A stretch of 64,000 nt of DNA from Marinobacterium zhoushanense (GCF_014641945.1 NZ_BMIJ01000005.1:222718-286717), one strand, 5' to 3'. Positions 25,648-57,203 are shown, counted from the first letter of the stretch. Numbers and translations are program-made. Notes: a model not told the origin generated them from the letters alone.

Positions 25648-27399
25648 CTATTTCAACCAGAACGCGATCAGCGTGAACAGCGCGATCATGAACCAGACCA
25701 GCGACATCAACTGCCAGAACAGCAGCGCGTTGGGGTGCTTCTGCTCCGCCTCGCGCGGAACCAGGAACTCCGGGTTGGGCTGGGTCAGGTCCTGCATCAT
25801 CCGGTCGATGCAGTCATAGCGCTGGCTGGGGTCGATGGCCAGCGCCTTCTCCAGCGCGCGGTCGAACCAGACCGGGATGATCGGGTTGTGGCGGTCGGCC
25901 GGGATATAGGCGAGCTTCTGCAGCTGCTGCGGCTTGTCGCAGTTCTCCAGCCCGTTGCCGTAGGGCAGGTGGTGGGTGAACAGCTCGTAGGTGATCGCGG
26001 CCAGTGAGAACATATCGCCGCGGATACCGGTATTCTGGCCCAGACGGAACACCGGGTCGGAGTAGTTCAGCGTGCCCAGCACCCGGTCGCGCTTGAGCGG
26101 GACGAAGATCTCGTTGATCCCGGCCACGAACACCGAGCCGAAATCGACGATTACCGCGCTGTTGTCGGGGCGGACCATGATATTGCTCGGCTTCAGGTCC
26201 TGGTGCAGCGTCTCACGCTGGTGGAACGCCTTCAGGCCATCGGCGATCTGCTTGATCAGCTCGATCGCCAGCGCCGGTTTCGGTATCGGGTTCTGTTTCA
26301 TCCAGCGGTCCAGTGATACCCCCTCCACCGGTTCCATCAGGTAGTAGAGGAAGGTCTTCGGGCGGTGGGCGATATGGATACGCACCACGTGATCGTTGCT
26401 GATGCGGCTACCGACCCACTCCTCCATGATGAAGCGTTCGATATAGGCGGCGTCATCCTCGAAGTTGCGCGACGGCGTCTTCATCACCCAGCGCTCGCCG
26501 CTCTCGATCTCCTGTACCTGGTACAGCTGGCTGCGGCTGCTGGCGTACAGCTCCTCTTCGATCAGGTAGCCGTCGATCTTCATCCCCGGTTCCAGCTCCG
26601 GCGGGAAGGGCAGCGCGGTGAGCTGTTCGGTGAGCTGGTCCAGTGAGGCGTCGTGCAGTTGATCGACGCGGACCAACTGACAGCTCAGGTTATCCCGGCT
26701 ACCGGCCCGGTAGGCGGCGTTGACCAGTGCCTCGCAACAGCTCTTCAGCTCGCCGCTGCTGCTGGCCAGGCGCAGCAGCGTTTCCGGATCCAGCGAGTCA
26801 TGCACGCCATCGGTGGTGAGCAGAAACAGGTCGCCCGGTTCGATCTCCAGCGGCCGGTAGTCGATCTCCAGGTGGGTATCCATGCCCATGGCGCGGGACA
26901 GGCAGCCCTCACGCTTGTTGAGCTGGGTGACATGATCCTCGGTCAGCTGGTCGAGACGACCGTCCCGAATCAGGTAGATACGGCTATCGCCGATATGGAA
27001 CAGGTGCGCGGTGCGCGACTTGATCACCAGCAGCGACAGCGTACAGACGTAGCCGCGGGTGCTGGAGAGGTACTCATGGCTGCGTGAGTAGAGGGTGCGG
27101 TTGATCGAGGTGAGCACCTTCTGCGCGGACTTGCCCACGGTCCAGATATCGGGGGTGTCGAAATAGTCGCTGAGAAACTCGCGCACACAGATTTCCGCCG
27201 CCTCGCCACCCGCTTCGGCGGTGCTGACGCCATCGGCGATCACCGCCACCGCGCCCTTGGTGGTCAGCAGGTTGCCCTCGGGCTGAACGAAGCCGAGGCA
27301 GTCCTCGTTTCGCTCCTTGCGCCCCTTGTCGCTGCACTGTCCGACGGACAGCTGGATCTCATCCCGTAGATACATCGCCTGCAGGTTCAGGTTGCTCAT
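25648..27399 (-). CDS. Second PP2C-phosphatase / Ser-Thr kinase fusion with C-terminal TM anchor (paralog of 8990..10720)
   Basis: PP2C motifs (ADGVS, TTDG, SRDN); kinase VVMK, HQDLKPSN, DFG; C-terminal hydrophobic helix; 80 nt downstream of narK on the same strand. Confidence 0.8.
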   Translation of the reverse strand: MSNLNLQAMYLRDEIQLSVGQCSDKGRKERNEDCLGFVQPEGNLLTTKGAVAVIADGVSTAEAGGEAAEICVREFLSDYFDTPDIWTVGKSAQKVLTSINRTLYSRSHEYLSSTRGYVCTLSLLVIKSRTAHLFHIGDSRIYLIRDGRLDQLTEDHVTQLNKREGCLSRAMGMDTHLEIDYRPLEIEPGDLFLLTTDGVHDSLDPETLLRLASSSGELKSCCEALVNAAYRAGSRDNLSCQLVRVDQLHDASLDQLTEQLTALPFPPELEPGMKIDGYLIEEELYASSRSQLYQVQEIESGERWVMKTPSRNFEDDAAYIERFIMEEWVGSRISNDHVVRIHIAHRPKTFLYYLMEPVEGVSLDRWMKQNPIPKPALAIELIKQIADGLKAFHQRETLHQDLKPSNIMVRPDNSAVIVDFGSVFVAGINEIFVPLKRDRVLGTLNYSDPVFRLGQNTGIRGDMFSLAAITYELFTHHLPYGNGLENCDKPQQLQKLAYIPADRHNPIIPVWFDRALEKALAIDPSQRYDCIDRMMQDLTQPNPEFLVPREAEQKHPNALLFWQLMSLVWFMIALFTLIAFWLK

Positions 27400-27479
27400 C
27401 CGGCCATCCTCCTATTCTCCCCAAACACGACCGGGTGACACCGTTACCGATGCCACCCGGACCCTGCCTGTGTTGAGAC

Positions 27480-28952
27480 CTATTCCACGCTGATCAGCTC
27501 GACCGTACCGTCCGGCAGCACCTCGGCCATCTGGCCGCTGGGCTCGTCCATGAACTGCACCAGCAGGAACACCAGGCCCGCGGAAGCACCGATCACCATG
27601 AAGAAGGTGGAGTAGTCGACGAAGCTCAACACGGTCAGGTAGCACACCGCACCGACATTGCCGTAAGCCCCGGCCATACCGGCAATCTGCCCGGTCATGC
27701 GGCGCTTGATCAGCGGCACCACGGCGAATACCGCACCCTCACCGGCTTGGACGAAGAAGGAGCAGGCCATGGTGGCGACTACTGCCGCGGGGATCCACCA
27801 GCCGCCGTCGATCCGGCTCAGCACGAAGTAGCCTACAGCCAGACCCAGGATCAGTACGCTGAGGGTCTTGCGACGACCGATACGGTCGCTCAGGTGACCG
27901 CCGGTGGGACGGGCGACCAGGTTCATGAAGGCGAAGCCGGAGGCGAGCAGACCCGCCTTGACCGGATCCAGACCCTCGAAGGTCTCCAGGAAGAACAGCG
28001 GCAGCATGGAAACCACCGCCAGCTCGGAGCCGAAGGTAACGAAGTAGGCCACGTCGAGTACCGCCACCTGCTTGAACTTGTAGCGCTGGATCTCCGGCAC
28101 ACCCTCTTTCAGGTGCTCCTCGTTGACGTGGTAGATCGCCCGCAGCTGGAACAGGAACAGCCCGACCAACACGGCATAGATTGCCTTGGTGCCGAACTCA
28201 TCGAGCAGGCCCAGGTTGGTCGGCGACAGTTTCCAGGTCAGCACCGCCAGCGCGGCGTACATCGGCAGGTTCATCAGGATGTAGAAGACGAAGTCGCCCT
28301 TGCTGGTCACCTCCAGGCCGCCATGTTTCTTCGGCTTGAAGTAGGTGGAGCCCTTCGGGGTGTTGCGTGCCACGCGGTAGAACACGAAGCCGTACAGGAT
28401 CGCCATTACACCGGCAGTGGCCAGTGCGTAACGCCAGCCGTTGTCACCGCCGTAGAGCAGCGCGAGGGTGGGCAGGGTCATGGCGCCGGCGGCGGAACCG
28501 AAGTTACCCCAGCCGCCGTATACCCCCTCGGCCACACCGACCTGCTTGGCCGGGAACCACTCGCCGACCAAGCGGATACCGATCACGAACCCGGCGCCGA
28601 TGAAGCCGCTCAGGAAACGCATGATCGCCAGCTGCTCATAGGTCTGCGCCGCCGCAAAACCGAGGCAGATAAAGCCGCCGATCACCAGCAGCATGCTGTA
28701 CACCACCCGCGGGCCGTACTTATCCACCAGCGTACCGATGACGATACGCGCCGGGATCGTTAGCGCCACGTTAAGAATCAACAGCGCCTTGATCTCGGGG
28801 CCGCTCAGATCGAACGCCTCCTTGATATACGCCATCATCGGCGCATGGCTGAACCACACCACAAAGGTGAGGAAAAACGCGAACCAGGTAACGTGGAGGG
28901 TCTTGATCTTGGGATCGCCAAAATCGAGCAACCTCAGATTGTTGGTAGACAT
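27480..28952 (-). CDS. narK: NarK-type MFS nitrate/nitrite transporter
   Basis: 490 aa, 12 TM segments, nitrate/nitrite-porter signature regions; RBS AGGAG. Confidence 0.85.
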
Positions 28953-29116
28953 TTGACTGCTCCTGAACTGTTGGCAGCTTTAAAAAACGGGTCGAGTCAT
29001 GAGTGACACAGCGCCGATGCAAAGACTCCGTCGCCACGGCAGGATCCAGTCAGGTGTGTTCCGGGCTCATGGAGTATGCGTTGAGGCCAAAATAGGCCCT
29101 TCGGGGTAGGCGAATG

Positions 29117-29130
29117 TTGATGCAGGTCAA
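29117..29130. promoter_or_regulatory. Candidate FNR box (TTGAT-N4-GTCAA) upstream of narK
   Basis: ~170 nt upstream of the narK start codon; a degenerate copy of the GGTA-cac-TTAGTGGTA motif lies ~40 nt further upstream (29166-29188). Confidence 0.35.
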
Positions 29131-29292
29131 CTGGGATTTAGGGTGTTTGCGGAGTGAAATGGGCGTCTACCACTTATGAGGTATGGGGTTGGTGTGTGTT
29201 TAATTATTTGATTTTAAATTGGTAATAGGTTGATTGGTGATAAGGGGAACGTGGATAAGTTAGAGGTTGAGGAATAGGGGGTATCTGGTGGG

Positions 29293-34241: not shown

Positions 34242-34245
34242 TGTT

Positions 34246-35472: not shown

Positions 35473-35520
35473 TGTGCTATTCCCTTATTCATTTCGTTGT
35501 TCGTTTGTCGACTTGACTAT

Positions 35521-35536
35521 AGCGAGGAAGGTGCCA
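35521..35536 (-). promoter_or_regulatory. Candidate sigma54 (-24/-12) promoter for rtcBA
   Basis: Minus-strand TGGCAC-cttcc-TCGCT with GG…GC spacing matching TGGCAC-N5-TTGCW; ~50 nt upstream of the rtcB ATG, in the rtcR-rtcB divergent region. Confidence 0.45.
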
Positions 35537-35684
35537 ACTTTTATAAAAGGGCTTGAAATGATTTTCATGTATCGGATTTATAAGGATTTATATATTTGTG
35601 TATCTCTTTTTGGATAGGCTGGGTATTTACTGGGCTGCAAAAAAATCTATCAAAAAAGATAGGTAGATATTATAGTCGATAGCC

Positions 35685-37274: not shown

Positions 37275-37505
37275 AACTCCTAGGATACTGGCAAAGGCGA
37301 TGGGGCTGTACCAGACTGTTCCCCATTATACGCGGTAGTTTTGCCGCTGCGGCAGCAGTGATCGAGATCAGGGACTGATAGGTGGAAGCTCTCTTTCGGC
37401 GTTATTCAGCCTCTCTGATTCACTTCGTCGTATGGGTTCCGCTGGCACTTGCGGTCGGATGGGTGCGGTTTTTCCACGGATATTGATTTCAAAGGAACTG
37501 AATGT

Positions 37506-38345
37506 ATGCATGCAAAATTAGGTGTGTGGGCACTACTGCTAACGCTTACCCTGACCGGCTGTGCCAATCTGAAAGAGGTCAGAGAGTACGCCGGCGAATC
37601 CGCCAAGTTCTCCGCCTATACCGAGTTGACCGAACGTTTCCGCGATACCTACTACCGCGAACAGCCCTACCTGACCGGTGAAGCAGAGCGGCTGGCGCAG
37701 GTAAACGATATCAAGCGCAAGGCGGCCTATGACGACCTGCTGACGATCCACCAACGGGTGGCGCTGTACATGCAGACCCTCGCCAGGCTGTCGGGTGAAG
37801 ATACCTTCGACCTCTCGGGAAACCTCGATTCTCTCGCCGGTGGTATCAAGGAGCACCCTGATCTGGGGATCGACAAGCAGCAGGTCGATGCCATCGCCGA
37901 TCTTGCCAATGTGGTGACGAGATGGGCGACCGCCTCGCAACAGCAGCGCGCGGTGCGCGAGATGATCAAAGCGGGCGATGCGCCGTTGCAGACAACCTTG
38001 CAGGGTATGAAGAGGCTTGTGCGTTATTACCGGGCAAGCCATGAAAACGAGAAGAGAACGGTGTTGGGTTTCTTTGAGGTAGAACTGCCCTACGTCGAAG
38101 ACCCGGAACACCGGCTCCTGGCCACCCTGGCGCGTGCGCACCTGCAGGCGAAAGAGGCCGAGTACCAGGCCGTTCAGCCCCAGTACGAGGCGGCGGCACA
38201 GGGTATCGAACGCATCGCCGAGGGGCACCGGAAACTGCTGGAGAATATCGACGATCTGACGAGTCAGGCGGTGAGAGACAGCATCAAGCGGTTCGCCAAG
38301 GATATCAAAGCGATCAGAAAGGATATCCAATCCATTGAAGGCTGA
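37506..38345 (+). CDS. Hypothetical lipoprotein
   Basis: Lipobox LTLTGC after a signal peptide (ATG 37506); helical, charged mature protein; unknown family. Confidence 0.5.
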   Translation: MHAKLGVWALLLTLTLTGCANLKEVREYAGESAKFSAYTELTERFRDTYYREQPYLTGEAERLAQVNDIKRKAAYDDLLTIHQRVALYMQTLARLSGEDTFDLSGNLDSLAGGIKEHPDLGIDKQQVDAIADLANVVTRWATASQQQRAVREMIKAGDAPLQTTLQGMKRLVRYYRASHENEKRTVLGFFEVELPYVEDPEHRLLATLARAHLQAKEAEYQAVQPQYEAAAQGIERIAEGHRKLLENIDDLTSQAVRDSIKRFAKDIKAIRKDIQSIEG

Positions 38346-38371: not shown

Positions 38372-38788
38372 ATGGCGCTGGCAAATGAAATGGAAGTTGA
38401 GGCTTTTGCCCAATGTCTGACCGAATGTGCCGATGCAATTCATGAGCGTATCAAGGCGGCGATAAAAAACCGCGAGATTGAACGGGATCAAGCGCAGTCG
38501 ATGTTTCAGGAGGAGAGCCTGCTGCGTCAGCGCGCCAACGGGTTATACATCGACGCCGCCAATTCTGTCGTGGCGGGGCTGACAGAGCCGCAAGACGCTC
38601 TGCTCGCTGCAATCGATAACGCCAACGACCGGATTCAGCAGATAAAAGAGATCGCCGGTTTTATCGACCTGGTGACCGATCTTGCGGTATTGGCAGCAGC
38701 GGTCAGCGCGGCAAAACCCGCGCCGATACTGGCGGCACTGAAGGAAGTGAAAGAAGACGTCGACGCCGTGAACAGTCAGCATTCCTGA
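38372..38788 (+). CDS. Hypothetical 138-aa helical protein co-transcribed with the lipoprotein
   Basis: 26-nt gap from the lipoprotein gene; no family recognised. Confidence 0.4.
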   Translation: MALANEMEVEAFAQCLTECADAIHERIKAAIKNREIERDQAQSMFQEESLLRQRANGLYIDAANSVVAGLTEPQDALLAAIDNANDRIQQIKEIAGFIDLVTDLAVLAAAVSAAKPAPILAALKEVKEDVDAVNSQHS

Positions 38789-39471: not shown

Positions 39472-40131
39472 TTATCCCAGCCCCTCCTGCACCGCCCAGA
39501 CCGCCACCTCGACTCGCGACTTCAACCCCAGCTTCTTCAGCAGGTGTTTCACGTGCACCTTCACCGTACCCTCGGTGATGCTCAGTTTGCGGGCGATGAT
39601 CTTGTTCGACATGCCGCCGGCGATCAGCTTGATGATCTGCTTCTCGCGCGGGGTCAGGGTGTCGATATCCGGGCCCTTGCGGCTACGGTTGTTCTGCAGT
39701 GCCTGGGCCAGCAGGGTGGTGAGACGGTCGCTGATCACCATTTTGCCGAGCGCGGCCTGGTTCAGGTTGGCGAGCAGATCTTCCGGCTCCATATCCTTGA
39801 GCAGGTAGCCGTCGGCACCGGCCTTCAGCGCGGCGACCACATCCTCTTCGTTGTCGGACACGGTGAACACCACCACCCGCGATCCGACACCGGCTTCACG
39901 CAGCATCTTCAGGCACTCGATGCCGTTGATCTCCGGCATGTTCAGGTCCAGCAGGATCAGGTCCGGCTCCAGAGCGTCGGCCTTGGCGACCCCCTCCTCG
40001 GCGCTACTGGCCTCACCGACCACCTCCAGTTCGTCGTCAAGGGCGATCAGCTGCTTGACCCCGGTGCGCAGCAGGGGATGGTCGTCGATCAGCAGGATGG
40101 AGGCGGGGGCGGTGTTGCTCATCTCGGTCAT
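39472..40131 (-). CDS. narL: Nitrate/nitrite response regulator NarL
   Basis: Near-collinear match to E. coli NarL ([18 protein letters not shown]…[16 protein letters not shown]…SRVEVAVW). Confidence 0.9.
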
Positions 40132-40162
40132 GGGGCTGCTCGCTTCTTGGTTTGCAACAAAG

Positions 40163-41983
40163 TTAAGACTGCTTGGGTTTAAATGTCATCAAAACACAGG
40201 TACCGCTGGGCTCACGGTTATCCACACTCAGATCGCCGCTCAGGGTATGGGTACGGTCGCGCATAATCAGCAGGCCGTAGTGACCCTGGTTCTCCAGCGA
40301 GGGCGGCAGACCGACGCCGTTATCCTCCACCCGCACCTCTACCCGTTCGCCGGACTGAGTAACCTGAACCGTTACCTCGCTGGCCTGGCTGTGCTTGACC
40401 ACGTTGGCCAGGGCCTCGCGCACCAGTTGCAGCACGTGGATCTCCTCGTTGGCGGTCAGGCTCTGATGGTGCAGGCTGTATTTCAGCGGGATGTCGAAAC
40501 CGAGGCGGTCGGAGAACTCCTTGACCGTGGACTCCAGCGCCGGTTGCAGGCCGGGTTGGTCCAGGGTCAGGCGGAAGGTGGTGAGCAGCTCGCGCAACTG
40601 GCGGTAGGCGTTGTTCAGCCCCTCCTTGAGCTCGGCGACCACATCGTCAATCTGCTCTTCGTCACGTTTCTGTTTGCGCAGGATCTGCAGGCGACCCACC
40701 TGCATCTTCAGGTAGGAGAGCGACTGTGCCAGGGAGTCGTGCAGTTCGCGGGCGATCACAGCGCGTTCCTCCATCAGCGACATGTGCTGCTCCTGGCTGG
40801 CCTTCAACTCCAGCGACAGCACGATGGCCAGGTTTTCCACCAGTGTGCGGAGCAACGCTGTCTGCTCCTGACCCAAGGGTTGCGTGGGCAGGAAGTTGAC
40901 TTTGAACTCGCCGAAATAGGCTTCCCGGGTTTGGATCGGCAGTGTGATCGAGTCGTGTAGACGGTTATCCGGCTCCGGCACTATGCAGTCGTTGCAGTCG
41001 GAGTTTTTGCAGTCGGCCGGCCGCTCCAGCAGTTGGGTAGTCAACTGACGATAGCTCAGGCGGTGGTGCGGATCGCACAGCGTGACCTCGATCGGCCCGA
41101 CGGCCAGAACATCCTCCAGCTCCTTCATGATCGGCATCAGGCGGCGGCAGATATCCTCGTTGCGGTTGAAACGTCGGGTGGCGTTGTAGAGCAGTTGCAG
41201 ACTCTTGTTGGATTCGCGCAGCTCGGCGGTTTTTCTCTGCACCCGGTTTTCCAGGTCGGCGTAGATCTTCGACAACTCCTCGGCCATATGGTTGAAGGTG
41301 GTGCCCAGCAGGCCCAGTTCGTCGTCGCTACGGTAGTGCACACGGGTGTCGAGCTTACCCTGGCCGGCATCGCGGGCCACGTTGAGCAGCTGGGCCAGGG
41401 GCTCGACCACGTTGGACTTGATGTCGTACATGGCGATGAAGATGATCATCACGGTCATGAACAGGCTGATCCCCTGGATCAGGCTGAGCAGCTTGATCTT
41501 CGATTCGGTGCTCTCCTCAAGCAGATGCACCATCTGGTCGATGCGGGGGACGAAATTCTCCAGTTGGCGCAGATAGGCCGAGTGGTCGGGGCTGTCGGTG
41601 AGGATCGCCGCCTTCAGCGCGGGCTGGAAGTTGTCGCGCCATTCGTCGACCAGCGTGGTGTAGGCCAGTCGCAACTGTTGCTGGTCATCCTTGGGCAGCA
41701 CATTGGTCAGGATCGGGTCGTTGATACGGCGGTCGAACTCGCCAATAGAGGTGAGCACCTTGTCGCGGCTGGTCTCGCTGCCCTCGCTGGCGTGCTGCTG
41801 GGTCTCGGCGATGATGCGGTAGGACATCATGCGCAGCGAGCCGGCCAGGTTGATTCCGGCGGCATCGCCCTGAGTGCTTTCCGCCACGATGACCGAGCTG
41901 ATCATACTGATCAGCGCCATCAGGCTGATGGCGAACATCGCCGTGCCCAGTCGGGTAATGATCGATTGCCTGAGGATCTTCAT
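40163..41983 (-). CDS. narX: Nitrate/nitrite sensor histidine kinase NarX
   Basis: Two TM segments flanking a periplasmic P-box-like region; HAMP; H-box ([11 protein letters not shown]) and HATPase domain; directly upstream of narL. Confidence 0.9.
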
Positions 41984-42107
41984 CGTTGCACTCCGTCGAG
42001 CCGCGCGGGGTTACTCACAAAGAATCGCGTAACGGCTAGCGTTTTTTCCACACCTTGCGTCAGACGTGGAAAATATAAGTTAAAACAGTCTGTTACAAAG
42101 AAAAGAA

Positions 42108-42130
42108 GTGGTACCACCTTAGTGGTATGG
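42108..42130. promoter_or_regulatory. Conserved promoter motif GTGGTACCACCTTAGTGGTATGG (candidate NarL site), ~35 nt upstream of an FNR box
   Basis: 18/20 identical to the motif upstream of narG (46748-46767); contains the palindrome GTGGTACCAC and TACCAC-type heptamers. Confidence 0.45.
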
Positions 42131-42164
42131 GCTGAAATGGTTAACTTTTTCAGCCAGTTATACG

Positions 42165-42178
42165 TTGATGCGCGTCAA
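42165..42178. promoter_or_regulatory. Candidate FNR box (TTGAT-N4-GTCAA) upstream of narK1
   Basis: ~62 nt upstream of the narK1 start. Confidence 0.45.
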
Positions 42179-42239
42179 TATCCGGGGATCGGTCCGGGTT
42201 TAGGTTTGGCTCAAATCGTCAGACCCGAATCGTATCACG

Positions 42240-43526
42240 ATGACCCAGACTACTCAGAAACAGATCTCCGCATTGGTCATGAGCACCCTGGTGTTCGCGG
42301 CCTGCTTTGCGACCTGGACGCTGATCTCGGTTATCGGTCTGCAAATAAAACATGAATTGCAGCTCAGTGAAACCGAGTTTGGTGTACTGGTGGCGACGCC
42401 GATCCTCAGCGGTGCCTTGGCGCGCCTTCCACTGGGTTTGCTGGCCGAGCGGCTGGGCGGTCATGCGTTGCTGGCCGTGCTAGTGCTGCTGGTCAGCGTG
42501 CCGCTCTACCTGTTTTCCCAGGCGCACAGCTACTGGCAGTATCTGGCACTGGGGTTATGCATCGGTCTGGTGGGTGGCAGTTTCGCCATCGGTATCCACT
42601 ATGTTTCCTCCTGGGCCTCGCGCGACAACCAGGGGCTGGCGATGGGGATCTTCGGTGCCGGCAACCTGGGCGCGGCGCTGACCAACCTGATCGCGCCGCT
42701 GATCATCATCGCCTACGGCTGGCGCATGGCCCCAATCGCCTACGCTTTCGTGCTGGTGCTGCTGGCGCTGCTGTTCTGGCTGCTGACCCAGGATGATCCG
42801 ATGCATCAGTCCCGCAGTCGCCGCGCGGAGCCCTCACTGACCGAGATGCTGATGCCGTTACTGGACCCACGGGTGTGGCGCTTCGGTCTGTACTACTTCT
42901 TCGTGTTCGGCGGCTACGTGGCGCTGGCGCTCTGGCTGCCTGACTACTACGTCCACCATTACGGTCTGGACCTGAAAAACGCCTCTTTCCTGACCCTGCT
43001 GTTTACCGTACCCGGCGCCCTGACCCGGGTGATCGGCGGCTGGTGCGCCGACCGCCTTGGTGCGCGGCGGGTCAACTGGAGCGTGTTCTGGGTCTGCCTG
43101 GTCTGTCTTTTCTTCCTCTCCTACCCACCCACCACCATGACCATTCATGGCATCGACGGCGACATCACGTTCCTGCTCGAGATGCCGGTCTGGCTGTTTA
43201 CTGTGCTGATCATGGTGATGGGTGTGGCGATGGGGTTCGGAAAAGCCGGGGTGTTCCGCACCGTCTACGACTACTACCCGGATCGCATGGGTACGGTCGG
43301 CGGCGCTGTGGGGTTGCTCGGTGCGATCGGCGGATTCGTACTGCCGATCAGTTTTGGTCTGGTAACGGACCTGTTCGGCGTACGCAGCTCCTGTTTCATG
43401 CTGCTCTACGGCCTGTTGGCGCTGTGCATGATCACCATGTACTACGGCATCTCGGTCCAGGAGAAGCAGAACCGGTTGCAGGAGGCGATACGCACCAACT
43501 TTTTGAAGGAGAACCTGGATGCCTGA
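42240..43526 (+). CDS. narK: NarK1-type MFS nitrate/nitrite transporter
   Basis: 428 aa, 12 TM MFS with NarK signature. Confidence 0.85.
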   Translation: MTQTTQKQISALVMSTLVFAACFATWTLISVIGLQIKHELQLSETEFGVLVATPILSGALARLPLGLLAERLGGHALLAVLVLLVSVPLYLFSQAHSYWQYLALGLCIGLVGGSFAIGIHYVSSWASRDNQGLAMGIFGAGNLGAALTNLIAPLIIIAYGWRMAPIAYAFVLVLLALLFWLLTQDDPMHQSRSRRAEPSLTEMLMPLLDPRVWRFGLYYFFVFGGYVALALWLPDYYVHHYGLDLKNASFLTLLFTVPGALTRVIGGWCADRLGARRVNWSVFWVCLVCLFFLSYPPTTMTIHGIDGDITFLLEMPVWLFTVLIMVMGVAMGFGKAGVFRTVYDYYPDRMGTVGGAVGLLGAIGGFVLPISFGLVTDLFGVRSSCFMLLYGLLALCMITMYYGISVQEKQNRLQEAIRTNFLKENLDA

Positions 43527-43640
43527 CCAGAGCGGCAACCGTCCGCTTCCCCGACCGGCCGATACGCGGCTTCGGGGCGGGTTCGACGTCAAGATCAGTC
43601 GGGCGTCAGGCGCCCGCTGCTTCAGCCTGGAGTGTGAGTC

Positions 43641-45245
43641 ATGTCCGATATAGTGAATTGGGATGTCGAGAACACCAAGTTCTGGGAGGACGAAGGCAAA
43701 AAAGTGGCGAACCGCAACCTGTGGATCTCGATCCCCAGCCTGTTGTGCGGCTTCGCTGTCTGGTTGTACTGGGGCATCATCACCGTGCAGATGTTGAACC
43801 TGGGCTTCCCCTTCGCCAAAGCAGAACTCTTTACCCTGGCCGGCATCGCCGGTTTGACGGGGGCAACGCTGCGTATTCCGAGCAGCTTTTTTATCCGCAT
43901 TGCCGGCGGACGCAATACCATCTTCTTCACCACGGCGCTGCTGATGGTGCCCGCCATCGGCACCGGTATGGCGCTGCAGGACAAGGACACGCCGTTGTGG
44001 ATCTTCCAGCTGCTGGCGTTCCTGTCCGGTATCGGCGGCGGTAACTTCGCCTCCTCCATGTCCAACATCAGCTTCTTCTTCCCGAAACGCCAGCAGGGGC
44101 TGGCGCTGGGTCTGAACGCGGGGCTGGGCAACGCCGGGGTGACCACCATGCAGATCCTGGTGCCGCTGGTGATGACCTTCGGTATCTTCGGCGGCACGCC
44201 GATGATCCTGGAGAACACCTCCGGCACGCTGATCGGCAAGATTCCGGCAGGCTCCGAAACCTATATCCACAACGCCGGTTACGTCTGGCTGCTGATCCTG
44301 GTGCCGCTGGCGGTGATGAGCTGGTTCGGCATGAACAACATCAAGACCGACGCCGTGTCGCCCGATGTGGGCAGTGCCACCGGCGCCATGGGCAAGGTGG
44401 CGGGGCTGCTGCTGATCGGCTTCTGCACCGCCGCCGCCGGTCTCTACATCATCCTGCCGGCGCCGACCGGCCTGGGCGCGCCGGACTGGGCCAAGTGGCC
44501 GGTGATCGCCGGTATCCTGTTCATGACCGTGGTGCTGATGAAGATGGTGCCGGGCGATATCAAGCCCAACCTGCAGCGCCAGTTCAAGATCTTCAGCAAC
44601 AAACACACCTGGATCATGAGCGTGATCTACACCATGACCTTCGGTAGCTTCATCGGCTACTCCGCCGGTTTCGCACTGGCGATCAAGGTGGTGTTCGGCT
44701 ATCAGCACCTGATGGTCGATGGCGTGCTGACCCACAACACGGTTAACGCCGCCGGTCCGTCGGCACTGATGTACGCCTGGATGGGGCCGTTCATCGGCGC
44801 CCTGATTCGCCCGGTAGGTGGTTGGATCGCCGATAAGGTGGGCGGTGCCAAGGTGACCCAGATCGTCGCCGTCATCATGATCGCGAGCGCCCTGGGGGTG
44901 GCCTACTTCCTCAAGCAGGCCTATCAGTCCGCCACGCCGGAGGAGTTCTTCCTGCCCTTCCTGATCCTGTTCCTGGTGCTGTTCGCCGCCACCGGTATCG
45001 GTAACGGCTCCACCTTCCGCACCATCGCCATGGTGTTCGACAAGGAGCAGGCCGGTCCTGCTCTGGGCTGGACCTCGGCGGTGGCCGCCTACGGCGCCTT
45101 CGTCATCCCACAGGTGTTCGGCGAGCAGATCAAGCTGGCGACACCAGAGAACGCCCTGTACGGCTTTGCCGTCTTCTATCTGGTCTGCCTGGTGCTGAAC
45201 TGGTGGTACTACCTGGGGCCGAAGGCGGAGTACAAGAATCCGTAA
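43641..45245 (+). CDS. narK: NarK2-type MFS nitrate/nitrite transporter (long form)
   Basis: 534 aa MFS, second NarK paralog in a narK1-narK2 tandem as in Pseudomonas. Confidence 0.85.
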   Translation: MSDIVNWDVENTKFWEDEGKKVANRNLWISIPSLLCGFAVWLYWGIITVQMLNLGFPFAKAELFTLAGIAGLTGATLRIPSSFFIRIAGGRNTIFFTTALLMVPAIGTGMALQDKDTPLWIFQLLAFLSGIGGGNFASSMSNISFFFPKRQQGLALGLNAGLGNAGVTTMQILVPLVMTFGIFGGTPMILENTSGTLIGKIPAGSETYIHNAGYVWLLILVPLAVMSWFGMNNIKTDAVSPDVGSATGAMGKVAGLLLIGFCTAAAGLYIILPAPTGLGAPDWAKWPVIAGILFMTVVLMKMVPGDIKPNLQRQFKIFSNKHTWIMSVIYTMTFGSFIGYSAGFALAIKVVFGYQHLMVDGVLTHNTVNAAGPSALMYAWMGPFIGALIRPVGGWIADKVGGAKVTQIVAVIMIASALGVAYFLKQAYQSATPEEFFLPFLILFLVLFAATGIGNGSTFRTIAMVFDKEQAGPALGWTSAVAAYGAFVIPQVFGEQIKLATPENALYGFAVFYLVCLVLNWWYYLGPKAEYKNP

Positions 45246-45274
45246 TCGATGTGACTCGAGTTACTGAGCAGATT

Positions 45275-45299
45275 GCGGGGCCAGACGCCCCGCTTTTTT
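45275..45299 (+). terminator. Rho-independent terminator after narK2
   Basis: GCGGGGC-cagac-GCCCCGC hairpin followed by TTTTTT. Confidence 0.6.
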
Positions 45300-45371
45300 G
45301 TACAGGGATGTACTTATCCCGCGAGCGCATGGATGCGCAAGAGCGGGATTTGCAGGATGCGTAAGATGTAG

Positions 45372-46514
45372 TTATCTAACGGGCTGATACCGGCAACCGT
45401 TAAACGCCGCGAACTCGCTGATCGCCTCATCCAGCCGCGGGGCGAAGTCCACCTTATCCACAGTCGGGTCCTCGATATGCAGGCTCAGCACCTCAAACCG
45501 CTGCTCGGCGCGGTGCGCCTTGCAGTCGATACGGCCGACAAAGCGGTCTCCCATCAGGATCGGCAGGCAGAAATAGCCGTATACCCGCTTGGCCGCCGGC
45601 AGGTAGCACTCCAGTCGGTAGTCGAAGCCGAACAGTCCGCTCAGGCGTTCACGATGGATCAGCGCATTGTCGAACGGCGACAGCAGCTTTACACGGTCGG
45701 TCTTCGGGGCCGCGGAGGTGGTGTCCAGAGCTCCGGCGTCGACATAGCAGTCGGGTAGCGCGGGATCTTCAACCTTGACGAGTGTGCCGCTTTCGATGCG
45801 CTCGGTCAGTACGTCACGCATTGCGGCCTTCAAAGGCTTGCCGGTCTTCAGGTGCAGCAGCTGTTTCCAGGTAACCAGACCGTGGGCGCGCACTGTGCTC
45901 TCCAGCAGATAGGACGCGTACTCATGCGGTGTGGGCTCACGCAGATCCAGGTCGGCAGGCAGGATACGTTCGGCCAGGTCATAGATCTTCTCCATGCCGT
46001 TGCGCTCGCGCACCATCAAATCGCCCTGCATGAACAGCTTGTCCAGTGCCCGCCGCCCCGGCCCCCAGTTCCACCAACTGCCCTGCTTGCTGCGGCCGGT
46101 GTCGACAGAGCGTACGCTCAGTGGACCTTCCTCACGCACTCGGTCGAGGATCTCCCGCATCATCCGGGTATCGATATTCGTGAAATAGGGGTGCTCGCCG
46201 GTGCGGATCGCATTCATCCGCGGCAGCGCAAAACGGTAGTCACGCATCGGCAGGTAGGAGGCGGCGTGAAACCAGTATTCGAAGATCTGCCGCTCGGCGA
46301 GCAGTCGGTTCAAGTGACTCGGCTGGTAATCCGGTACCCGGGCCCAGAGGGTGTGGTGATGCGCGCGCTCCACCACCGACAGGGCATCGATCTGCACATA
46401 GCCCAGGTGTTCGATCGCCTGGCGGGTCCCATGCAGGCCGCTACCAAAGGGTTGTGCCTGGGTGAGTCCTTGTCTGGTCAGCGCTAATTGTCGCCAATGC
46501 AGATGAGCCATCAT
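45372..46514 (-). CDS. Winged-helix DNA-binding domain protein, YcaQ/AlkZ-like (crosslink-repair DNA glycosylase family)
   Basis: 380-aa ORF resembling the YcaQ family along its length. Confidence 0.6.
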   Translation of the reverse strand: MMAHLHWRQLALTRQGLTQAQPFGSGLHGTRQAIEHLGYVQIDALSVVERAHHHTLWARVPDYQPSHLNRLLAERQIFEYWFHAASYLPMRDYRFALPRMNAIRTGEHPYFTNIDTRMMREILDRVREEGPLSVRSVDTGRSKQGSWWNWGPGRRALDKLFMQGDLMVRERNGMEKIYDLAERILPADLDLREPTPHEYASYLLESTVRAHGLVTWKQLLHLKTGKPLKAAMRDVLTERIESGTLVKVEDPALPDCYVDAGALDTTSAAPKTDRVKLLSPFDNALIHRERLSGLFGFDYRLECYLPAAKRVYGYFCLPILMGDRFVGRIDCKAHRAEQRFEVLSLHIEDPTVDKVDFAPRLDEAISEFAAFNGCRYQPVR

Positions 46515-46747
46515 CTTGGTCCTTAACCTGAGCGGTTCATGGTAGAAGATCGGGCTGTTCCCGAACAGCTTCGTGACTGATAGTCCTCATGCCTGAGCAG
46601 CCCAAGCAGGGGGAGTGGAGGGCATTCAGAAGTGTGTATTGATCGGGATACCTATAAAGACCTGCAGGGTAAAAATCGAATCCCTCTTCACCTTATCTGT
46701 CACATATAAACACTTTAAAAAACATATCATTAGATGTGATTCGGGTT

Positions 46748-46767
46748 GGTATCACTTTAGTGGTATA
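46748..46767. promoter_or_regulatory. Conserved promoter motif TGGTATCACTTTAGTGGTAT (candidate NarL site) upstream of narG
   Basis: Shares GGTA(T/C)CAC(T/C)TTAGTGGTAT with the narK1 promoter; 36 nt upstream of an FNR box; a TACCTAT heptamer also at 46649-46655. Confidence 0.45.
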
Positions 46768-46802
46768 TGCCATTTTGCACGCCTAGCGCCCCTTTTCCAG
46801 CG

Positions 46803-46816
46803 TTGACCCAGATCAA
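46803..46816. promoter_or_regulatory. Candidate FNR box (TTGAC-N4-ATCAA) upstream of narG
   Basis: One mismatch to consensus; ~200 nt upstream of the narG ATG. Confidence 0.5.
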
Positions 46817-47013
46817 CATCGGTTGGCCGCCGCTGCCGTACTTTCACTCCCACACAGTAAACCGCAGGACGCACTGCAACGAGGTAGTGCGCCCCCGCGA
46901 GCAGACCAGCAAAGGCCGGTTAGCGCCGGGGTTACCCGACAGGCCGGAAAATCCAGAGGGATACATCGCCGTGATGAATCCTGTCCTGAGCAAGAGGTTT
47001 CAGGAGACCTAAT

Positions 47014-50000
47014 ATGAGCCATTTGCTTGATCGACTCAGATATCTGAAGAAGAAGCCGCAGAGCTTCGCCGGCAACCACGGCCAGACCACGGACGAGAAC
47101 CGTGACTGGGAGGATGGTTACCGCCAGCGCTGGCAGCACGACAAGATCGTGCGTTCCACCCACGGTGTGAACTGCACCGGTTCCTGCAGCTGGAAGATCT
47201 ACGTCAAGAACGGTCTGATCACCTGGGAGACCCAGCAGACCGACTACCCGCGTACCCGGCCCGACCTGCCCAACCACGAGCCGCGCGGCTGCCCCCGTGG
47301 TGCCAGCTACTCCTGGTATATCTACAGCGCCAACCGGCTGAAGTACCCGACCATCCGCAAGCGCCTGCTGCAGCTGTGGCGCGAAGCGCGGCTGACACAC
47401 CAGGACCCGGTGGAAGCCTGGGCCTGCATCGTTGAGAATCCGGACAAGGCCAGATCCTACAAGTCGGTACGCGGCCAGGGCGGTTTCGTGCGTTCGAACT
47501 GGGACGAGGTCAACGAGATCATCGCCGCGTCCAACACTTACACCATCAAGCAGTACGGCCCCGACCGTGTGATCGGCTTCTCGCCGATCCCGGCCATGTC
47601 GATGGTCTCCTATGCCGCCGGCGCCCGTTACCTGTCGCTGATCGGCGGTGCCTGCCTGAGCTTCTACGACTGGTACTGCGACCTGCCGCCGGCGTCGCCG
47701 ATGACCTGGGGCGAGCAGACCGACGTGCCGGAATCGGCCGACTGGTACAACTCCAACTACATCATCGCCTGGGGCTCCAACGTACCCCAGACCCGTACCC
47801 CGGATGCCCACTTCTTCACCGAGGTGCGCTACAAGGGCACCAAGACTGTGGCGGTAACGCCGGACTACTCCGAGGTCGCCAAGCTGTGCGACCAGTGGCT
47901 GAATCCGAAGCAGGGCACCGACGCGGCGATGGCGATGGCGATGGGCCACGTGATCCTGAAGGAGTTCTACGTCGACAAGCCCAGCGCCTACTTCAACGAC
48001 TACGCGCGCAAGTACAGCGACATGCCGTTCCTGGTGCAGCTGGACAAGCGTGACGACGGCTCCTATGCCGCCGGTCGCTTTATCCGCGCCGCCGACTTCG
48101 ATGCCAACCTGGGCCAGGACAACAACCCGGACTGGAAAACCGTCGCCTTCGACACCAGCAGCAATCAGTTTGTGGTGCCCAACGGCTCCATCGGCTTCCG
48201 CTGGGGCGAGCAGGGCAAGTGGAACATCGAGGAGAAGGAGGGCGGCGAGGGTCGTGGCACCCAGCTGGCGCTGAGCCTGATCGACAACCACGACGAGGTG
48301 GTATCGGTGGGCTTCCCTTACTTCGGTGGGGTGGAGAACGAGTACTTCACCAACAACGTGTTCAGCGATGTGATTCATCACAACCTGCCGGCCAAGCGGG
48401 TCAAACTGGCCGATGGCAGCGAGTCGCTGCTGGTCACCGTGGGTGACCTGATGCTGGCCAACTACGGTGTCGACCGCGGCCTGGGCGGCGATTTCGTGGC
48501 CAAGAGCTTCGATGACAACGCGCCTTACACCCCGGCCTGGCAGGAGCAGATCACCGGTGTCGACCGCAACGTGGTGATCAACATCGCCCGCGAGTTCGCC
48601 GATACCGCGGACAAGACCAAGGGTCGCTCTATGATCATCGTCGGTGCCGGTATGAACCACTGGTACCACATGGACATGAACTATCGTGGCCTGATCAACC
48701 TGCTGGTGATGTGCGGCTGCATCGGCCAGACCGGTGGCGGCTGGGCGCACTATGTGGGGCAGGAGAAGCTGCGTCCGCAGTGCGGCTGGTTGCCGCTGGC
48801 GTTCGGTCTCGACTGGCAGCGTCCACCGCGGCACATGAACGGCACCTCCTTCTTCTATAACCACTCCAACCAGTGGCGCTACGAGAAGCTTGAGGTGAGT
48901 GAGATCCTCTCCCCGCTGGCCGACAGGTCCAAGTACAGCGGTAGCCTGATCGACTTCAACGTGCGCTCCGAGCGCATGGGCTGGCTGCCGTCGGCACCGC
49001 AACTGAACACCAACCCGCTGCATCTGACCAAGGCGGCGCAGGCCGCCGGCAAGACGCCGCAGGAGTATGCGGTCGAGCAGCTTAAGAGCGGCAAGCTTGG
49101 CTTCGCGGCCGAGGATCCGGACAACCCGCAGAACTTCCCGCGCAACATGTTCATCTGGCGCTCCAACCTGCTCGGCTCCTCCGGCAAGGGCCATGAGTAC
49201 ATGCTCAAGTACCTGCTCGGCACCAACCACTCGGTGCTGGGCAAGGACCTGGGTGAAGAGGGCGGTCACAAGCCGGAAGAGGTGAAGTGGCACGATCAGG
49301 GCGCCGAAGGCAAGGTCGACCTGCTGGTGACACTGGACTTCCGCATGTCCACCACCTGCCTCTACTCCGACATCGTGTTGCCCACCGCCACCTGGTACGA
49401 GAAGGACGACCTCAACACCTCGGATATGCACCCGTTCATCCACCCGCTCTCCGCGGCCACCGACCCGGCCTGGGAAGCGCGTTCCGACTGGGATATCTAC
49501 AAGGGGATCGCACAGAAGTTCTCCGAGGTCTGCGTCGGTCACCTGGGCGTGGAGCAGGATCTGGTCACCGTGCCGCTGCTGCACGACACCGCCGGCGAGC
49601 TGGCCCAGCCCTATGATGTGAAAGACTGGAAAAAAGGCGAGTGCGACCCGGTACCGGGCAAGACCATGCCGAACCTGGCCCTGGTCGAGCGTGACTACCC
49701 CAACACCTATGCCCGCTTCACCTCGGTCGGTCCGCTGCTGGAATCCGCCGGTAACGGCGGCAAGGGGATCAACTGGGACACCAAGAAAGAGGTTGAGCTG
49801 CTCAAGCAACTGAACTGGACCCACACCCAACCGGGTGCCAGCGAGGGCCGCGCCAAGCTGGAGACCGCCATCGATGCTGCCGAGATGATCCTGGCGCTGG
49901 CGCCGGAGACCAACGGTCAGGTGGCGGTGAAGGCCTGGGAAGCGCTGGGCAAGGCCACCGGCCTCGACCACACCCACCTGGCGCTGCCGAAGGAGGAGGA

Positions 50001-50778
50001 GAAGATCCGCTTCCGCGACGTGCAGGCGCAGCCGCGCAAGATCATCTCCTCGCCGACCTGGTCTGGCCTGGAAGATGAGCACGTCTCCTACAATGCCGGC
50101 TACACCAACGTGCATGAGCTGATCCCCTGGCGCACCCTGACCGGTCGTCAGCAGTACTACCAGGATCACCAGTGGATGCGTGACTTCGGCGAGAGCCTAC
50201 TGGTGTACCGGCCGCCGATCAACACCAAGTCGGTCAAACCGATGCTGAACCACAAGTCCAACGGCAACCCGGAGATCGCGCTGAACTGGATCACCCCGCA
50301 CCAGAAGTGGGGCATCCACTCCACCTACAGCGACAACCTGATCATGCTGACGCTGTCGCGCGGCGGTCCGATCATCTGGATGTCCGAGGTGGATGCGGCC
50401 AAGGTCGGCATCGAGGACAACGACTGGGTTGAGATCTTCAACACCAACGGCGCCATCGCTGCCCGTGTCGTGGTCTCCCAGCGGGTCAACGAGGGGATGA
50501 CGCTGATGTACCACGCCCAGGAGCGCATCGTGAACGTACCGGGCGCGGAAACCTCCGGCACCCGCGGCGGTATTCACAACTCGGTGACCCGCGCCTGCCC
50601 GAAACCGACCCACATGATCGGTGGCTACGCGCAGCAGTCCTACGGCTTTAACTACTACGGCACCGTCGGTTCCAACCGTGACGAGTTCGTCATCGTACGC
50701 AAGATGAAGAACATCGACTGGCTGGATGGCGAGAACAACGACTATGTACAGGATCCTGTTCAGGAGGCCGCACAATGA
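47014..50778 (+). CDS. narG: Respiratory nitrate reductase alpha subunit NarG
   Basis: 1254 aa; N-terminal HxxxCxxxC FeS motif and molybdopterin oxidoreductase domains. Confidence 0.95.
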   Translation: MSHLLDRLRYLKKKPQSFAGNHGQTTDENRDWEDGYRQRWQHDKIVRSTHGVNCTGSCSWKIYVKNGLITWETQQTDYPRTRPDLPNHEPRGCPRGASYSWYIYSANRLKYPTIRKRLLQLWREARLTHQDPVEAWACIVENPDKARSYKSVRGQGGFVRSNWDEVNEIIAASNTYTIKQYGPDRVIGFSPIPAMSMVSYAAGARYLSLIGGACLSFYDWYCDLPPASPMTWGEQTDVPESADWYNSNYIIAWGSNVPQTRTPDAHFFTEVRYKGTKTVAVTPDYSEVAKLCDQWLNPKQGTDAAMAMAMGHVILKEFYVDKPSAYFNDYARKYSDMPFLVQLDKRDDGSYAAGRFIRAADFDANLGQDNNPDWKTVAFDTSSNQFVVPNGSIGFRWGEQGKWNIEEKEGGEGRGTQLALSLIDNHDEVVSVGFPYFGGVENEYFTNNVFSDVIHHNLPAKRVKLADGSESLLVTVGDLMLANYGVDRGLGGDFVAKSFDDNAPYTPAWQEQITGVDRNVVINIAREFADTADKTKGRSMIIVGAGMNHWYHMDMNYRGLINLLVMCGCIGQTGGGWAHYVGQEKLRPQCGWLPLAFGLDWQRPPRHMNGTSFFYNHSNQWRYEKLEVSEILSPLADRSKYSGSLIDFNVRSERMGWLPSAPQLNTNPLHLTKAAQAAGKTPQEYAVEQLKSGKLGFAAEDPDNPQNFPRNMFIWRSNLLGSSGKGHEYMLKYLLGTNHSVLGKDLGEEGGHKPEEVKWHDQGAEGKVDLLVTLDFRMSTTCLYSDIVLPTATWYEKDDLNTSDMHPFIHPLSAATDPAWEARSDWDIYKGIAQKFSEVCVGHLGVEQDLVTVPLLHDTAGELAQPYDVKDWKKGECDPVPGKTMPNLALVERDYPNTYARFTSVGPLLESAGNGGKGINWDTKKEVELLKQLNWTHTQPGASEGRAKLETAIDAAEMILALAPETNGQVAVKAWEALGKATGLDHTHLALPKEEEKIRFRDVQAQPRKIISSPTWSGLEDEHVSYNAGYTNVHELIPWRTLTGRQQYYQDHQWMRDFGESLLVYRPPINTKSVKPMLNHKSNGNPEIALNWITPHQKWGIHSTYSDNLIMLTLSRGGPIIWMSEVDAAKVGIEDNDWVEIFNTNGAIAARVVVSQRVNEGMTLMYHAQERIVNVPGAETSGTRGGIHNSVTRACPKPTHMIGGYAQQSYGFNYYGTVGSNRDEFVIVRKMKNIDWLDGENNDYVQDPVQEAAQ

Positions 50779-55489: not shown

Positions 55490-56491
55490 ATGACTGAAGC
55501 AGACAGCGGCCTGATCGATGGCCTGGGTAGAAAGATCGACTACATCCGCCTGTCGGTAACCGACCGCTGCGACTTCCGCTGTGTCTACTGCATGGCCGAG
55601 GATGTGCAGTTTCTACCCCGTGCCCGCATCCTGTCGCTGGAAGAGCTGGAGACCCTGGCCCGCTCCTTCGTCGAGATGGGGGTCAGGCGGATCCGCCTGA
55701 CCGGCGGTGAGCCGCTGATGCGCCGGGGGATTGTCGACCTGGTGGCGCGCCTGGCATCGCTGCCGGGACTGGACGAGGTGGTGATGACCACCAACGGCTC
55801 GCAACTCTATCGCCTGGCCAGGCCACTGAAGGAAGCGGGCCTGAAGCGACTCAATATCAGCCTGGACAGCCTGAAACCGGAGCGCTTCGCGGCGATGACC
55901 CGGCGCAGCAAACTGTGCCAGGTGCTCGCCGGTATCGACGCGGCCGTGGCCGCCGGTTTCGAGCGCATCAAGTTGAACAGCGTCATCATGCAGGGCCACA
56001 ACGATGACGAGATCCATCCGCTGTTGGCCTTTGCCCAGTCACGCGGCATCGATATCAGTTATATCGAAGAGATGCCGCTGGGCCGGGTCTACAGCCACGA
56101 CCGCCGTCAGGCCTACTGCTCCAGCGATGATGTGAAACGGGAGATTGAAACCCGCTATCAACTGATGCCCTGCACCGACCGCACCGGTGGTCCCTCCCGC
56201 TATTACCGTATTGCCGGGTTGCCGGGCAGGGTCGGCTTCATCTCTCCACACAGCCATAACTTCTGCGACAGCTGCAACCGCCTGCGGGTGACTGCCGAGG
56301 GACGCCTGCTGCTCTGCCTGGGACAGGAACACTCGGTGGACCTGCGCGACATTCTGCGCCGTTATCCCGGCGAGAAAAATCGGATCGAGAAGAGGGTGCG
56401 AGAGGCGATACGCCACAAACCATCAGGACACAGCTTTGCCGATCGCGATGCGCCCCAGGTATTGCGTTTCATGAACATGACAGGTGGATAG
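55490..56491 (+). CDS. moaA: GTP 3',8-cyclase MoaA
   Basis: Radical-SAM CxxxCxxC (CDFRCVYC) plus a C-terminal Cys cluster; 333 aa. Confidence 0.9.
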
Positions 56492-56495
56492 AGCC

Positions 56496-57203
56496 ATGGG
56501 ATGGAGAGCGACTCATGTTGAGCTTCAAACGCACTGGACCAAGCAGGTGCGACAGCACCTACTGCTGTCGGCGCTGGACGAGCGCCAGTTCAGCGAGCTG
56601 ATGGCATCAGCCCGGCTGATCGACCTGCAACCACGGGAGAGCCTGTTTCAGCAGGGCGATGCCGCCGAGCGGGTGTTCATCGTACTGACGGGACGTATCA
56701 AGTTCTTCCGTATCTCCGCCAGCGGACGGGAGATCGTGATCAGTGTACTGGGGCGAAACGATCCGGTGGCCGAAGCGGCCATGTTCATGTCTGAGCAGCA
56801 CTACCCGGCCAATGCCAGTGCCATTGAGGCGAGCTGCCTGCTGGCCCTTAATGCTCATGTCTATCAGCACCTGCTGCGGCAGTCGGTGGACAGCTGTTTC
56901 GGCGTCATGGCCGCGATGGCCGCACGCCTGCAGCGCAGCATGGCGGAGATCGAAACGCTGACCCAGCAGGACGCGGCGCACCGCGTGGCCCGCTTTATCC
57001 TCGACCTGGTGGATAAGGGGGAGAGCGGACGGGTGGTGGTTGAGCTGCCGGTCTCCAAGCAACTGATCGCGGCACGGCTGGCGATGCAGCCGGAAACCTT
57101 CTCGCGGGTGATCGCGGCACTGAAACACAAGGGCCTGCTGCAGGTGAATGGCGGCATGCTGACCATACCCAGCGTGGCTGGCTTAAGGCAGTGGGCGGTA
57201 TGA
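56496..57203 (+). CDS. dnr: Dnr/NNR-type Crp-Fnr family transcriptional regulator (no N-terminal Cys cluster)
   Basis: cNMP-binding-like domain plus a C-terminal HTH; strong similarity to P. aeruginosa Dnr (…ETLTQQDAAHRVARFILDL…VELPVSKQLIAARLAMQPETFSRV…). Confidence 0.75.
   Translation: MGWRATHVELQTHWTKQVRQHLLLSALDERQFSELMASARLIDLQPRESLFQQGDAAERVFIVLTGRIKFFRISASGREIVISVLGRNDPVAEAAMFMSEQHYPANASAIEASCLLALNAHVYQHLLRQSVDSCFGVMAAMAARLQRSMAEIETLTQQDAAHRVARFILDLVDKGESGRVVVELPVSKQLIAARLAMQPETFSRVIAALKHKGLLQVNGGMLTIPSVAGLRQWAV

Follow-up and report, generated by a model that had tools for sequence, protein, structure and literature searches.

The nar locus and its three composite promoters

The 64,000-nucleotide stretch of Marinobacterium zhoushanense DNA analysed here (GCF_014641945.1, NZ_BMIJ01000005.1:222718-286717; hereafter the window) carries a nar locus in which three promoters share a palindromic motif accompanied by an FNR-type box. 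The locus contains narL (39472-40131, minus strand; NCBIfam NarL equivalog, 340.9 bits against a cut-off of 250) and narX (40163-41983, minus; best match NarX with 480.5 bits, below that model's cut-off of 578), which form a cognate two-component system (39472..41983, minus) divergent from narK1. The first promoter is that of narK1 (42240-43526, plus), which shares an operon (42240..45245) with narK2 (43641-45245, plus). The second belongs to narG (47014..50778, plus; TIGR01580, 2360 bits), the first gene of narGHJI. The third is that of a NarK-family transporter gene (27480-28952, minus), followed in the same operon (25648..28952) by a gene for a PP2C phosphatase/Ser-Thr kinase fusion (25648-27399, minus). 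This transporter and phosphatase/kinase pair is conserved, together with its promoter, beside the nar loci of relatives.

The shared motif spans 16 bp and consists of two 7-bp half-sites in inverted orientation with a 2-bp spacer between them (7-2-7), the type of site that NarL prefers. Predicted sites of this kind were located in the narK1 promoter (TACCACC-tt-AGTGGTA, 42112..42127, centred at -93.5), where an additional heptamer, AGTGGTA, overlaps the palindrome at 42107-42113; in the narG promoter (TATCACT-tt-AGTGGTA, 46750..46765); and in the third promoter (TACCACT-ta-TGAGGTA, 29168..29183, reading TACCTCA-ta-AGTGGTA on the minus strand). All three fit the definition of a NarL 7-2-7 site, namely inverted TACYNMT/TACYYMT heptamers with a 2-bp spacer. 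When the 64 kb were searched with TACCACTTTAGTGGTA, allowing up to three mismatches, matches were found only at these three promoters (0.17 expected), and 0/100 shuffles reached the observed count.

A predicted FNR-type box lies on the gene-proximal side of each palindrome: TTGATgcgcGTCAA for narK1 (42165..42178, centred at -41.5), TTGACccagATCAA for narG (46803..46816) and TTGATgcagGTCAA for the third NarK-family gene (29117..29130). Each box has one mismatch to TTGAT-N4-ATCAA. The distance from palindrome to box is identical in 3/3 promoters, at 37 bp edge to edge and 52 bp centre to centre. An earlier note on this DNA had claimed three copies of the motif, each placed 35-45 bp from an FNR box. 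All six elements were found in the sequence, and the fixed spacing it proposed holds exactly. The narK1 motif and the three boxes had been positioned correctly, but the narG 20-mer occupies 46747-46766, one position from where it had been put, and the third copy begins at 29168 rather than 29166. Moreover, this third copy had been called degenerate, whereas it is a good 7-2-7 site. The same note had singled out GTGGTACCAC as the relevant palindrome. However, the symmetry is that of the 7-2-7, and GTGGTACCAC was rejected as a functional palindrome because it occurs solely in narK1-class promoters (8/37 of the promoters stacked below).

FNR-type boxes are not confined to the three nar promoters. 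A search with TTGATNNNNATCAA at no more than one mismatch returned 8 matches in the window against 0.92 expected. Among them are the boxes previously reported before ubiU (16462-16475) and nrdD (19843-19856), which do stand upstream of a U32-peptidase (UbiU/V-like) gene and of the NrdD/NrdG genes, respectively. Given this excess, the earlier suggestion that the whole anaerobic island is under FNR is plausible. Two other FNR-like boxes were noted: TTGACCGATATCAA (60498-60511) overlaps the 5′ end of a hemerythrin open reading frame (60009-60518, minus) and has a CBS-domain gene (60648, plus) ~140 bp downstream, while TTGAACGGGATCAA (38478-38491) falls within a run of overlapping unannotated open reading frames. 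A weak match to the composite at 60605, with 3 mismatches and at 40 bp distance from TTAACCTGGATCAA, is supported by no other element and is probably a chance match.

Conservation in relatives and metagenomes

A NarK2 query retrieved 80 genomic loci, the nearest of which is from Marinobacterium ramblicola (97% amino-acid identity). The distances between 7-2-7-like and FNR-like sites in these loci fall into discrete classes, with 41 pairs at 52 bp, 3 at 51 bp and 11 at 40-41 bp; every other distance is represented by two pairs at most. The 52-bp class precedes narK1, narG and the third NarK-family gene; it was found in Marinobacterium, Neptuniibacter, Amphritea, Pontibacterium and Neptunomonas, as well as in metagenome-assembled genomes related to these, and comprises 35-37 non-redundant promoters. 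The 40-41-bp class lies upstream of narK1, for example in Thiodiazotropha and some Sedimenticola, and is one helical turn shorter, which would place NarL at -82.5. In these latter lineages narK2 and narG are separated by a gap of only ~120-160 bp, and narG lacks a separate promoter. In the lineage of the window the gap is long, and narG would therefore need a cassette to itself. An inserted, oppositely oriented gene also occupies this gap in the window and in M. ramblicola; that of the window encodes an AlkZ-like DNA glycosylase (45372-46514, minus, divergent from narG; Pfam PF06224, 233.6 bits). Among the 80 loci, an AlkZ-like gene in this position was seen only in these two.

The 35-37 non-redundant promoters of the 52-bp class were stacked on the centre of the palindrome, which revealed conserved islands within otherwise unalignable sequence. 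The arms of the palindrome are kept as sequence (TACC.C / G.GGTA), with no compensatory change, and the spacer, left unspecified by the search pattern, is A/T in 35/35 stacked sites. The stack also shows that the list of elements in the earlier note was incomplete. A -10 hexamer, an IHF-like core and a distal NarL heptamer are likewise held at fixed positions, and the corresponding patterns (TAnnnT in the case of the hexamer) formed no part of the site selection.

The hexamer TAnnnT begins 22 nt after the FNR box (29.5 bp from the box centre) in 30/35 promoters. In the window it reads TAGGTT for narK1 (42201..42206, plus; inferred transcript start ~42213, ATG at 42240), TACTTT for narG (46839..46844, plus; inferred start ~46851, ATG at 47014) and TATTTT for the third NarK-family gene (29089..29094, minus; inferred start ~29082, ATG at 28952). 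A -10 element at this distance would place FNR at -41.5 and the NarL 7-2-7 at -93.5, in keeping with the composite class II design that had been proposed. A consensus sigma-70 -35/-10 pair was found in none of the three promoter regions, as is expected of activator-dependent promoters.

Further upstream, 35/37 promoters have a match to WATCAANNNNTTR, at up to two mismatches, that begins 36-37 bp before the palindrome centre, against a background of 0.35 per position. This conserved IHF-like core is preceded on its 5′ side by an A/T tract. The predicted cores of the window are AAACAGTCTGTTA for narK1 (42083..42095, plus, at ~-124; A/T tract at 42070-42079), AAACATATCATTA for narG (46720..46732, plus) and, for the third NarK-family gene, AATCAAATAATTA (29201..29213, minus), a perfect match to the consensus. 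In 31/37 promoters there is also a TACYYMY heptamer, with AAAGA after it, at a distance of 106-108 bp upstream of the palindrome centre (background 0.16 per position). In the window this predicted distal NarL heptamer is TACTCAC for narK1 (42012..42018, plus, ~-198), TACCTAT for narG (46649..46655, plus, ~-199) and TACCCCC for the third promoter (29277..29283, minus). Homology to M. ramblicola stops at 29285, 2 bp outside the distal heptamer of the third promoter, and restarts at 46645, 4 bp upstream of that of narG. Breakpoints this close indicate that the distal heptamers mark the outer edge of the selected sequence.

Wherever narX and narK1 are divergent, a 7-2-7 with no more than two mismatches to the general NarL consensus TACYNMTNNAKNRGTA was present between them (55/55 loci). 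At one mismatch or fewer the count is 39/55, compared with 1.9% of random 300-bp pieces. Together with the fit to the 7-2-7 definition and the NarL orthologue encoded nearby, this supports the earlier proposal that the motif is a NarL site. In Sedimenticola and relatives (loci L006-L011, L017, L026 and others), the narX-narK1 region has a third, direct-repeat heptamer immediately before the 7-2-7, as in TACCCCC-ta-TACCTCT-tt-AGTGGTA. An FNR box 35-60 bp away was undetected in most of these third-heptamer loci, which suggests that the Sedimenticola-type nar promoter is of a different design, possibly depending on NarL alone.

Metagenomic contigs were scanned with the composite pattern TACCNCNNNNGNGGTA-N37-TTGANNNNNNTCAA, which yielded at least 121 matches in at least 120 stretches. 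Among the matches listed, 108/121 have narG (69) or a NarK-family gene (39) 52-215 nt downstream in the right orientation; 7/121 have too little downstream sequence to judge and 6/121 are without a nar gene. Random occurrence of the motif, which the earlier note had said would tell against its proposal, is thus not what was found, and the specificity of the composite is sufficient for it to be used in searching metagenomes for narG and narK promoters. Many of the narG matches are enterobacterial, with a NarG N-terminus 90-98% identical to that of E. coli, and many of these carry the exact FNR box of E. coli. They have a full palindrome at 52 bp, for example TACCGCTTTGGTGGTA.

Comparison with characterised promoters

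The narXL-narK-narG region of E. coli K-12 was superposed on the window promoters by means of the FNR boxes. The -89 heptamer of E. coli narG, AGGGGTA, falls in the same columns as the right half-site AGTGGTA of all three window palindromes, and a proximal NarL heptamer 47.5 bp upstream of the FNR-box centre is common to E. coli narG and 3/3 window promoters. The core TTACAGTCTGTTA of E. coli narG lies 1 bp off the narK1 core AAACAGTCTGTTA of the window, with ACAGTCTGTTA common to both; the E. coli IHF site is placed near -125. Judged by these cores, 35/37 promoters would have, like promoters of the narG type, an IHF site that falls between the distal NarL site and the proximal one. The predicted distal heptamers of the window, at -198/-199, likewise correspond to the direct heptamer near -195 of that type. 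E. coli narG has three heptamers here (TACCCAT, TACTCCT and TACCCAT at -208, -195 and -185) in the same direct orientation, whereas each window promoter has one, followed by the conserved AAAGA. In E. coli narG, phosphorylated NarL (NarL-P) footprints at -89 and -195, and both sites are required together with FNR and IHF (PMC4549865).

The principal difference is that E. coli narG "lacks any 7-2-7" (PMC4549865). The K-12 promoter has only a half-site at -89 (TTATCCT-aa-AGGGGTA), whereas the window promoters have the full palindrome, and the narG-type cassette is present three times in the window locus. Since enterobacterial relatives have a full 7-2-7 at 52 bp, the half-site of K-12 looks like a degenerate form.

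Other promoters resemble those of the window in part. The E. coli narK promoter serves the same class of gene (NarK) in the same divergent arrangement with narXL as narK1 of the window, and has TACTCAC-t-ATGGGTA 52-53 bp upstream of the FNR box TTGATttacATCAA (2832-2846 and 2885-2898 of locus L081). However, its heptamers are arranged as 7-1-7 rather than 7-2-7 and, by eye, no IHF-like core or distal heptamer stands out at matching positions. In Pseudomonas aeruginosa the divergent narXL/narK1K2 arrangement is also that of the window, but a single promoter serves narK1K2GHJI, whereas narG of the window has its own copy. The P. aeruginosa narK1 promoter is described as needing four factors of the same kinds as those predicted here, namely Anr, Dnr, NarXL and IHF (Schreiber 2007, cited by PMC12491237 and PMC8139620). 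E. coli nirB and nrfA combine a class II FNR site at -41.5 with a single upstream 7-2-7 (at -69.5 or -74.5), as in the window, but the spacing is 28-33 bp instead of 52 bp (40-41 bp in other lineages), and the window promoters differ from them in having a non-overlapping IHF-like core and a distal heptamer. At nirB and nrfA, NarL works by anti-repression against IHF/Fis (PMC10853779).

The design is already known. As far as sequence can tell, it is the E. coli narG architecture (PMC4549865), found here in a new lineage and in triplicate, and it leaves knowledge of nitrate regulation unchanged. What it adds is that the regulation of the nar locus in a Marinobacterium-like organism and its relatives can be annotated with confidence and in a form open to testing. 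It also shows that conservation of the E. coli narG architecture, in exact register, extends far outside the enterobacteria.

Regulators encoded in the window

The NarL of the window aligns end to end with E. coli NarL (PDB 1A04; E = 1e-83). Its recognition helix, TVKVHVKH, is identical to that of E. coli, including K188, V189 and K192, and K174 and R178 are also conserved. In E. coli NarL the first three of these residues contact bases, while K174 and R178 contact the alpha C-terminal domain of RNA polymerase (PMC10853779).

A gene for a Dnr-like regulator of the Crp/Fnr family (56484..57203, plus) lies downstream of narGHJI, inside a moaA/moaB/moeA/mobA cluster, a position that resembles that of dnrE in Pseudomonas stutzeri. 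The predicted protein is without an N-terminal Cys cluster and has an E--SR recognition helix (PETFSRV). Its best NCBIfam matches are weak (87.9 bits for FtrB, whose cut-off is 211). Either FNR/ANR or this Dnr-like regulator could recognise the FNR-type boxes.

Proposed mechanism and alternatives

We consider it highly probable that the three promoters are activator-dependent sigma-70 promoters of the E. coli narG type, which would act as an AND gate for anaerobiosis and nitrate. The FNR-type box is centred 29.5 bp before the -10 hexamer and a -35 element is lacking; FNR/ANR or the Dnr-like regulator would therefore bind as a dimer at -41.5 and give class II activation when oxygen is absent (or nitric oxide, NO, is present). 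Nitrate-activated NarX would phosphorylate NarL, and a NarL-P dimer would bind the high-affinity palindrome at -93.5 on the same face of the DNA as FNR, the 52 bp between palindrome and box being about five helical turns. IHF would bend the DNA near -124, at the core ~30 bp upstream of the palindrome. By analogy with E. coli narG, this bend could return NarL-P bound at the distal heptamer (~-198, ~105 bp upstream of the palindrome) to the FNR-RNA polymerase complex. The gate would apply in parallel to narK1K2, narGHJI and the third NarK-family transporter/kinase operon, so that three operons would share a single 'no oxygen AND nitrate' condition.

Several points weigh against this assignment. 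The positions -41.5, -93.5, -124 and -198 all depend on a predicted -10 element. For IHF the consensus used is a loose one and the region is rich in A/T, yet the enrichment of the core over the local background is ~50-fold. There is some circularity in the tables of 7-2-7 and FNR positions, since matches to these two patterns served to choose the sites. Within the 64-kb window there is no canonical FNR/ANR gene, only the Dnr-like one, and no IHF gene. Moreover, a single synthetic 7-2-7 placed at -69.5 to -81.5 upstream of a CRP site at -40.5 gave no nitrate control in E. coli (PMC9314961), which indicates that the palindrome alone may not suffice.

The identity of the factor that reads the boxes bears on what the gate would sense. 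It is possible, if doubtful, that they are read mainly by the Dnr-like regulator (56484-57203), in which case the gate would combine NO or N-oxides with nitrate, or that both regulators act in turn, as at P. aeruginosa narK1. A Crp/Fnr gene in the locus, for a protein that lacks the Cys cluster and has the E--SR helix that reads TTGAT half-sites, is in line with this, as is the need of P. aeruginosa narK1 for Anr, Dnr, NarXL and IHF (Schreiber 2007, cited by PMC12491237 and PMC8139620). However, the assignment of the protein itself is hampered by family scores far below cut-off, ANR and DNR boxes are indistinguishable by sequence, and the boxes before ubiU and nrdD in the same window are classical FNR/ANR targets. 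The role of NarL could also differ. In the manner of E. coli nirB, NarL-P might displace or re-phase IHF or Fis that blocks FNR-dependent activation, with no loop to RNA polymerase. The IHF-like core does adjoin the palindrome in the 35/37 promoters, and at the nir promoter NarL, from its site at -69.5, displaces the IHF that occupies -88 (PMC10853779). We nevertheless regard anti-repression as unlikely: core and palindrome do not overlap, their centres being ~30 bp apart; the spacing is kept along with a distal heptamer, an arrangement shared with E. coli narG, at which IHF acts positively (PMC4549865); and the natural positions of NarL, -93.5 and -82.5, are one helical turn apart, which favours face-specific contact.

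Least probable of all, and in our view very improbable, is that the palindrome is bound by another regulator (a NarP paralogue or another LuxR/FixJ-type protein) or acts as an RNA or DNA hairpin, for instance as a terminator of divergent transcription. A terminator scan did flag 42112-42127 on the minus strand as a weak hairpin with a T-rich tail, and the search for other regulators covered the window only. The hairpin or terminator was nevertheless rejected, the scan match being weak, the stem having only 6 pairs and the arms being conserved as sequence instead of by compensatory change. Furthermore, the site occurs in three orientations and contexts with the distance to an FNR box invariably 52 bp, conforms to the NarL consensus, and is found upstream of narK1 wherever narX adjoins narK1.

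Within the preferred reading, an AND gate of the E. coli narG type, the two natural spacings, with NarL at -93.5 or -82.5, fit a face-specific contact and constitute a natural experiment on the cooperation of NarL and FNR. It is quite conceivable, and we advance it tentatively, that the five-element cassette of distal heptamer, IHF core, 7-2-7, FNR box and -10 hexamer is an ancient, rigid nucleoprotein module whose register has been kept base for base from Enterobacterales to Oceanospirillales. The full palindrome at -93.5 would then be ancestral and the K-12 half-site a derivative. Taken with the -82.5 variant, this would imply that the NarL dimer makes a face-specific contact with the alpha C-terminal domain of RNA polymerase or with FNR, beyond IHF looping alone.

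The narG leader and other features of the window

The inferred leader of narG (46851-47013, ~163 nt) has the appearance of a structured RNA that is conserved among those relatives whose narG has its own promoter. It begins with an invariant 5′ ACAGTAAAC, followed by hairpins of variable sequence between conserved single-stranded blocks (ACAGACCAGCCG..ATCCGG; GGGTAAAACCGCC). At the 3′ end is an invariant GTCCTGACCAAGRGGTTTCAGGAGA, whose arms TCCTGA/TCAGGA pair across the ribosome-binding site, and the hairpin just before it has compensatory changes in 7/10 pairs. Folding z-scores of -2 to -3.9 were obtained for 9/13 leaders, and a sequence profile of the leader matches only upstream of this type of narG (16 loci). 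The leader of M. ramblicola is without 101 nt. A search of Rfam with 46780-47060 returned no family, even at E up to 10, and a molybdenum cofactor riboswitch is unsupported for this reason; at curated thresholds, Rfam detected only a tRNA in the whole window. The narG leader may be an uncharacterised regulatory leader. An attenuator considered for the leader of the third NarK-family gene was dropped, its fold being no better than that of shuffled sequence (z = +0.83).

The pairing of transporter and kinase in the third operon, under a NarL/FNR cassette, hints that nitrate transport may be regulated by phosphorylation. An 8.2-kb stretch (29286-37522), located between narL and the third nar promoter, is absent from M. 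ramblicola. It contains a tRNA (32987-33060, minus), a Band7/SPFH gene and rtcB-rtcA with the sigma-54 activator rtcR, and its G+C content falls as low as 0.475 at 30-32 kb. The stretch appears to be an inserted island. Elsewhere in the window, adjoining the ubiU/V-like genes, is a NasR-like gene (14712-16028, minus) whose product combines a NIT nitrate/nitrite-sensing domain with an ANTAR RNA-binding domain.

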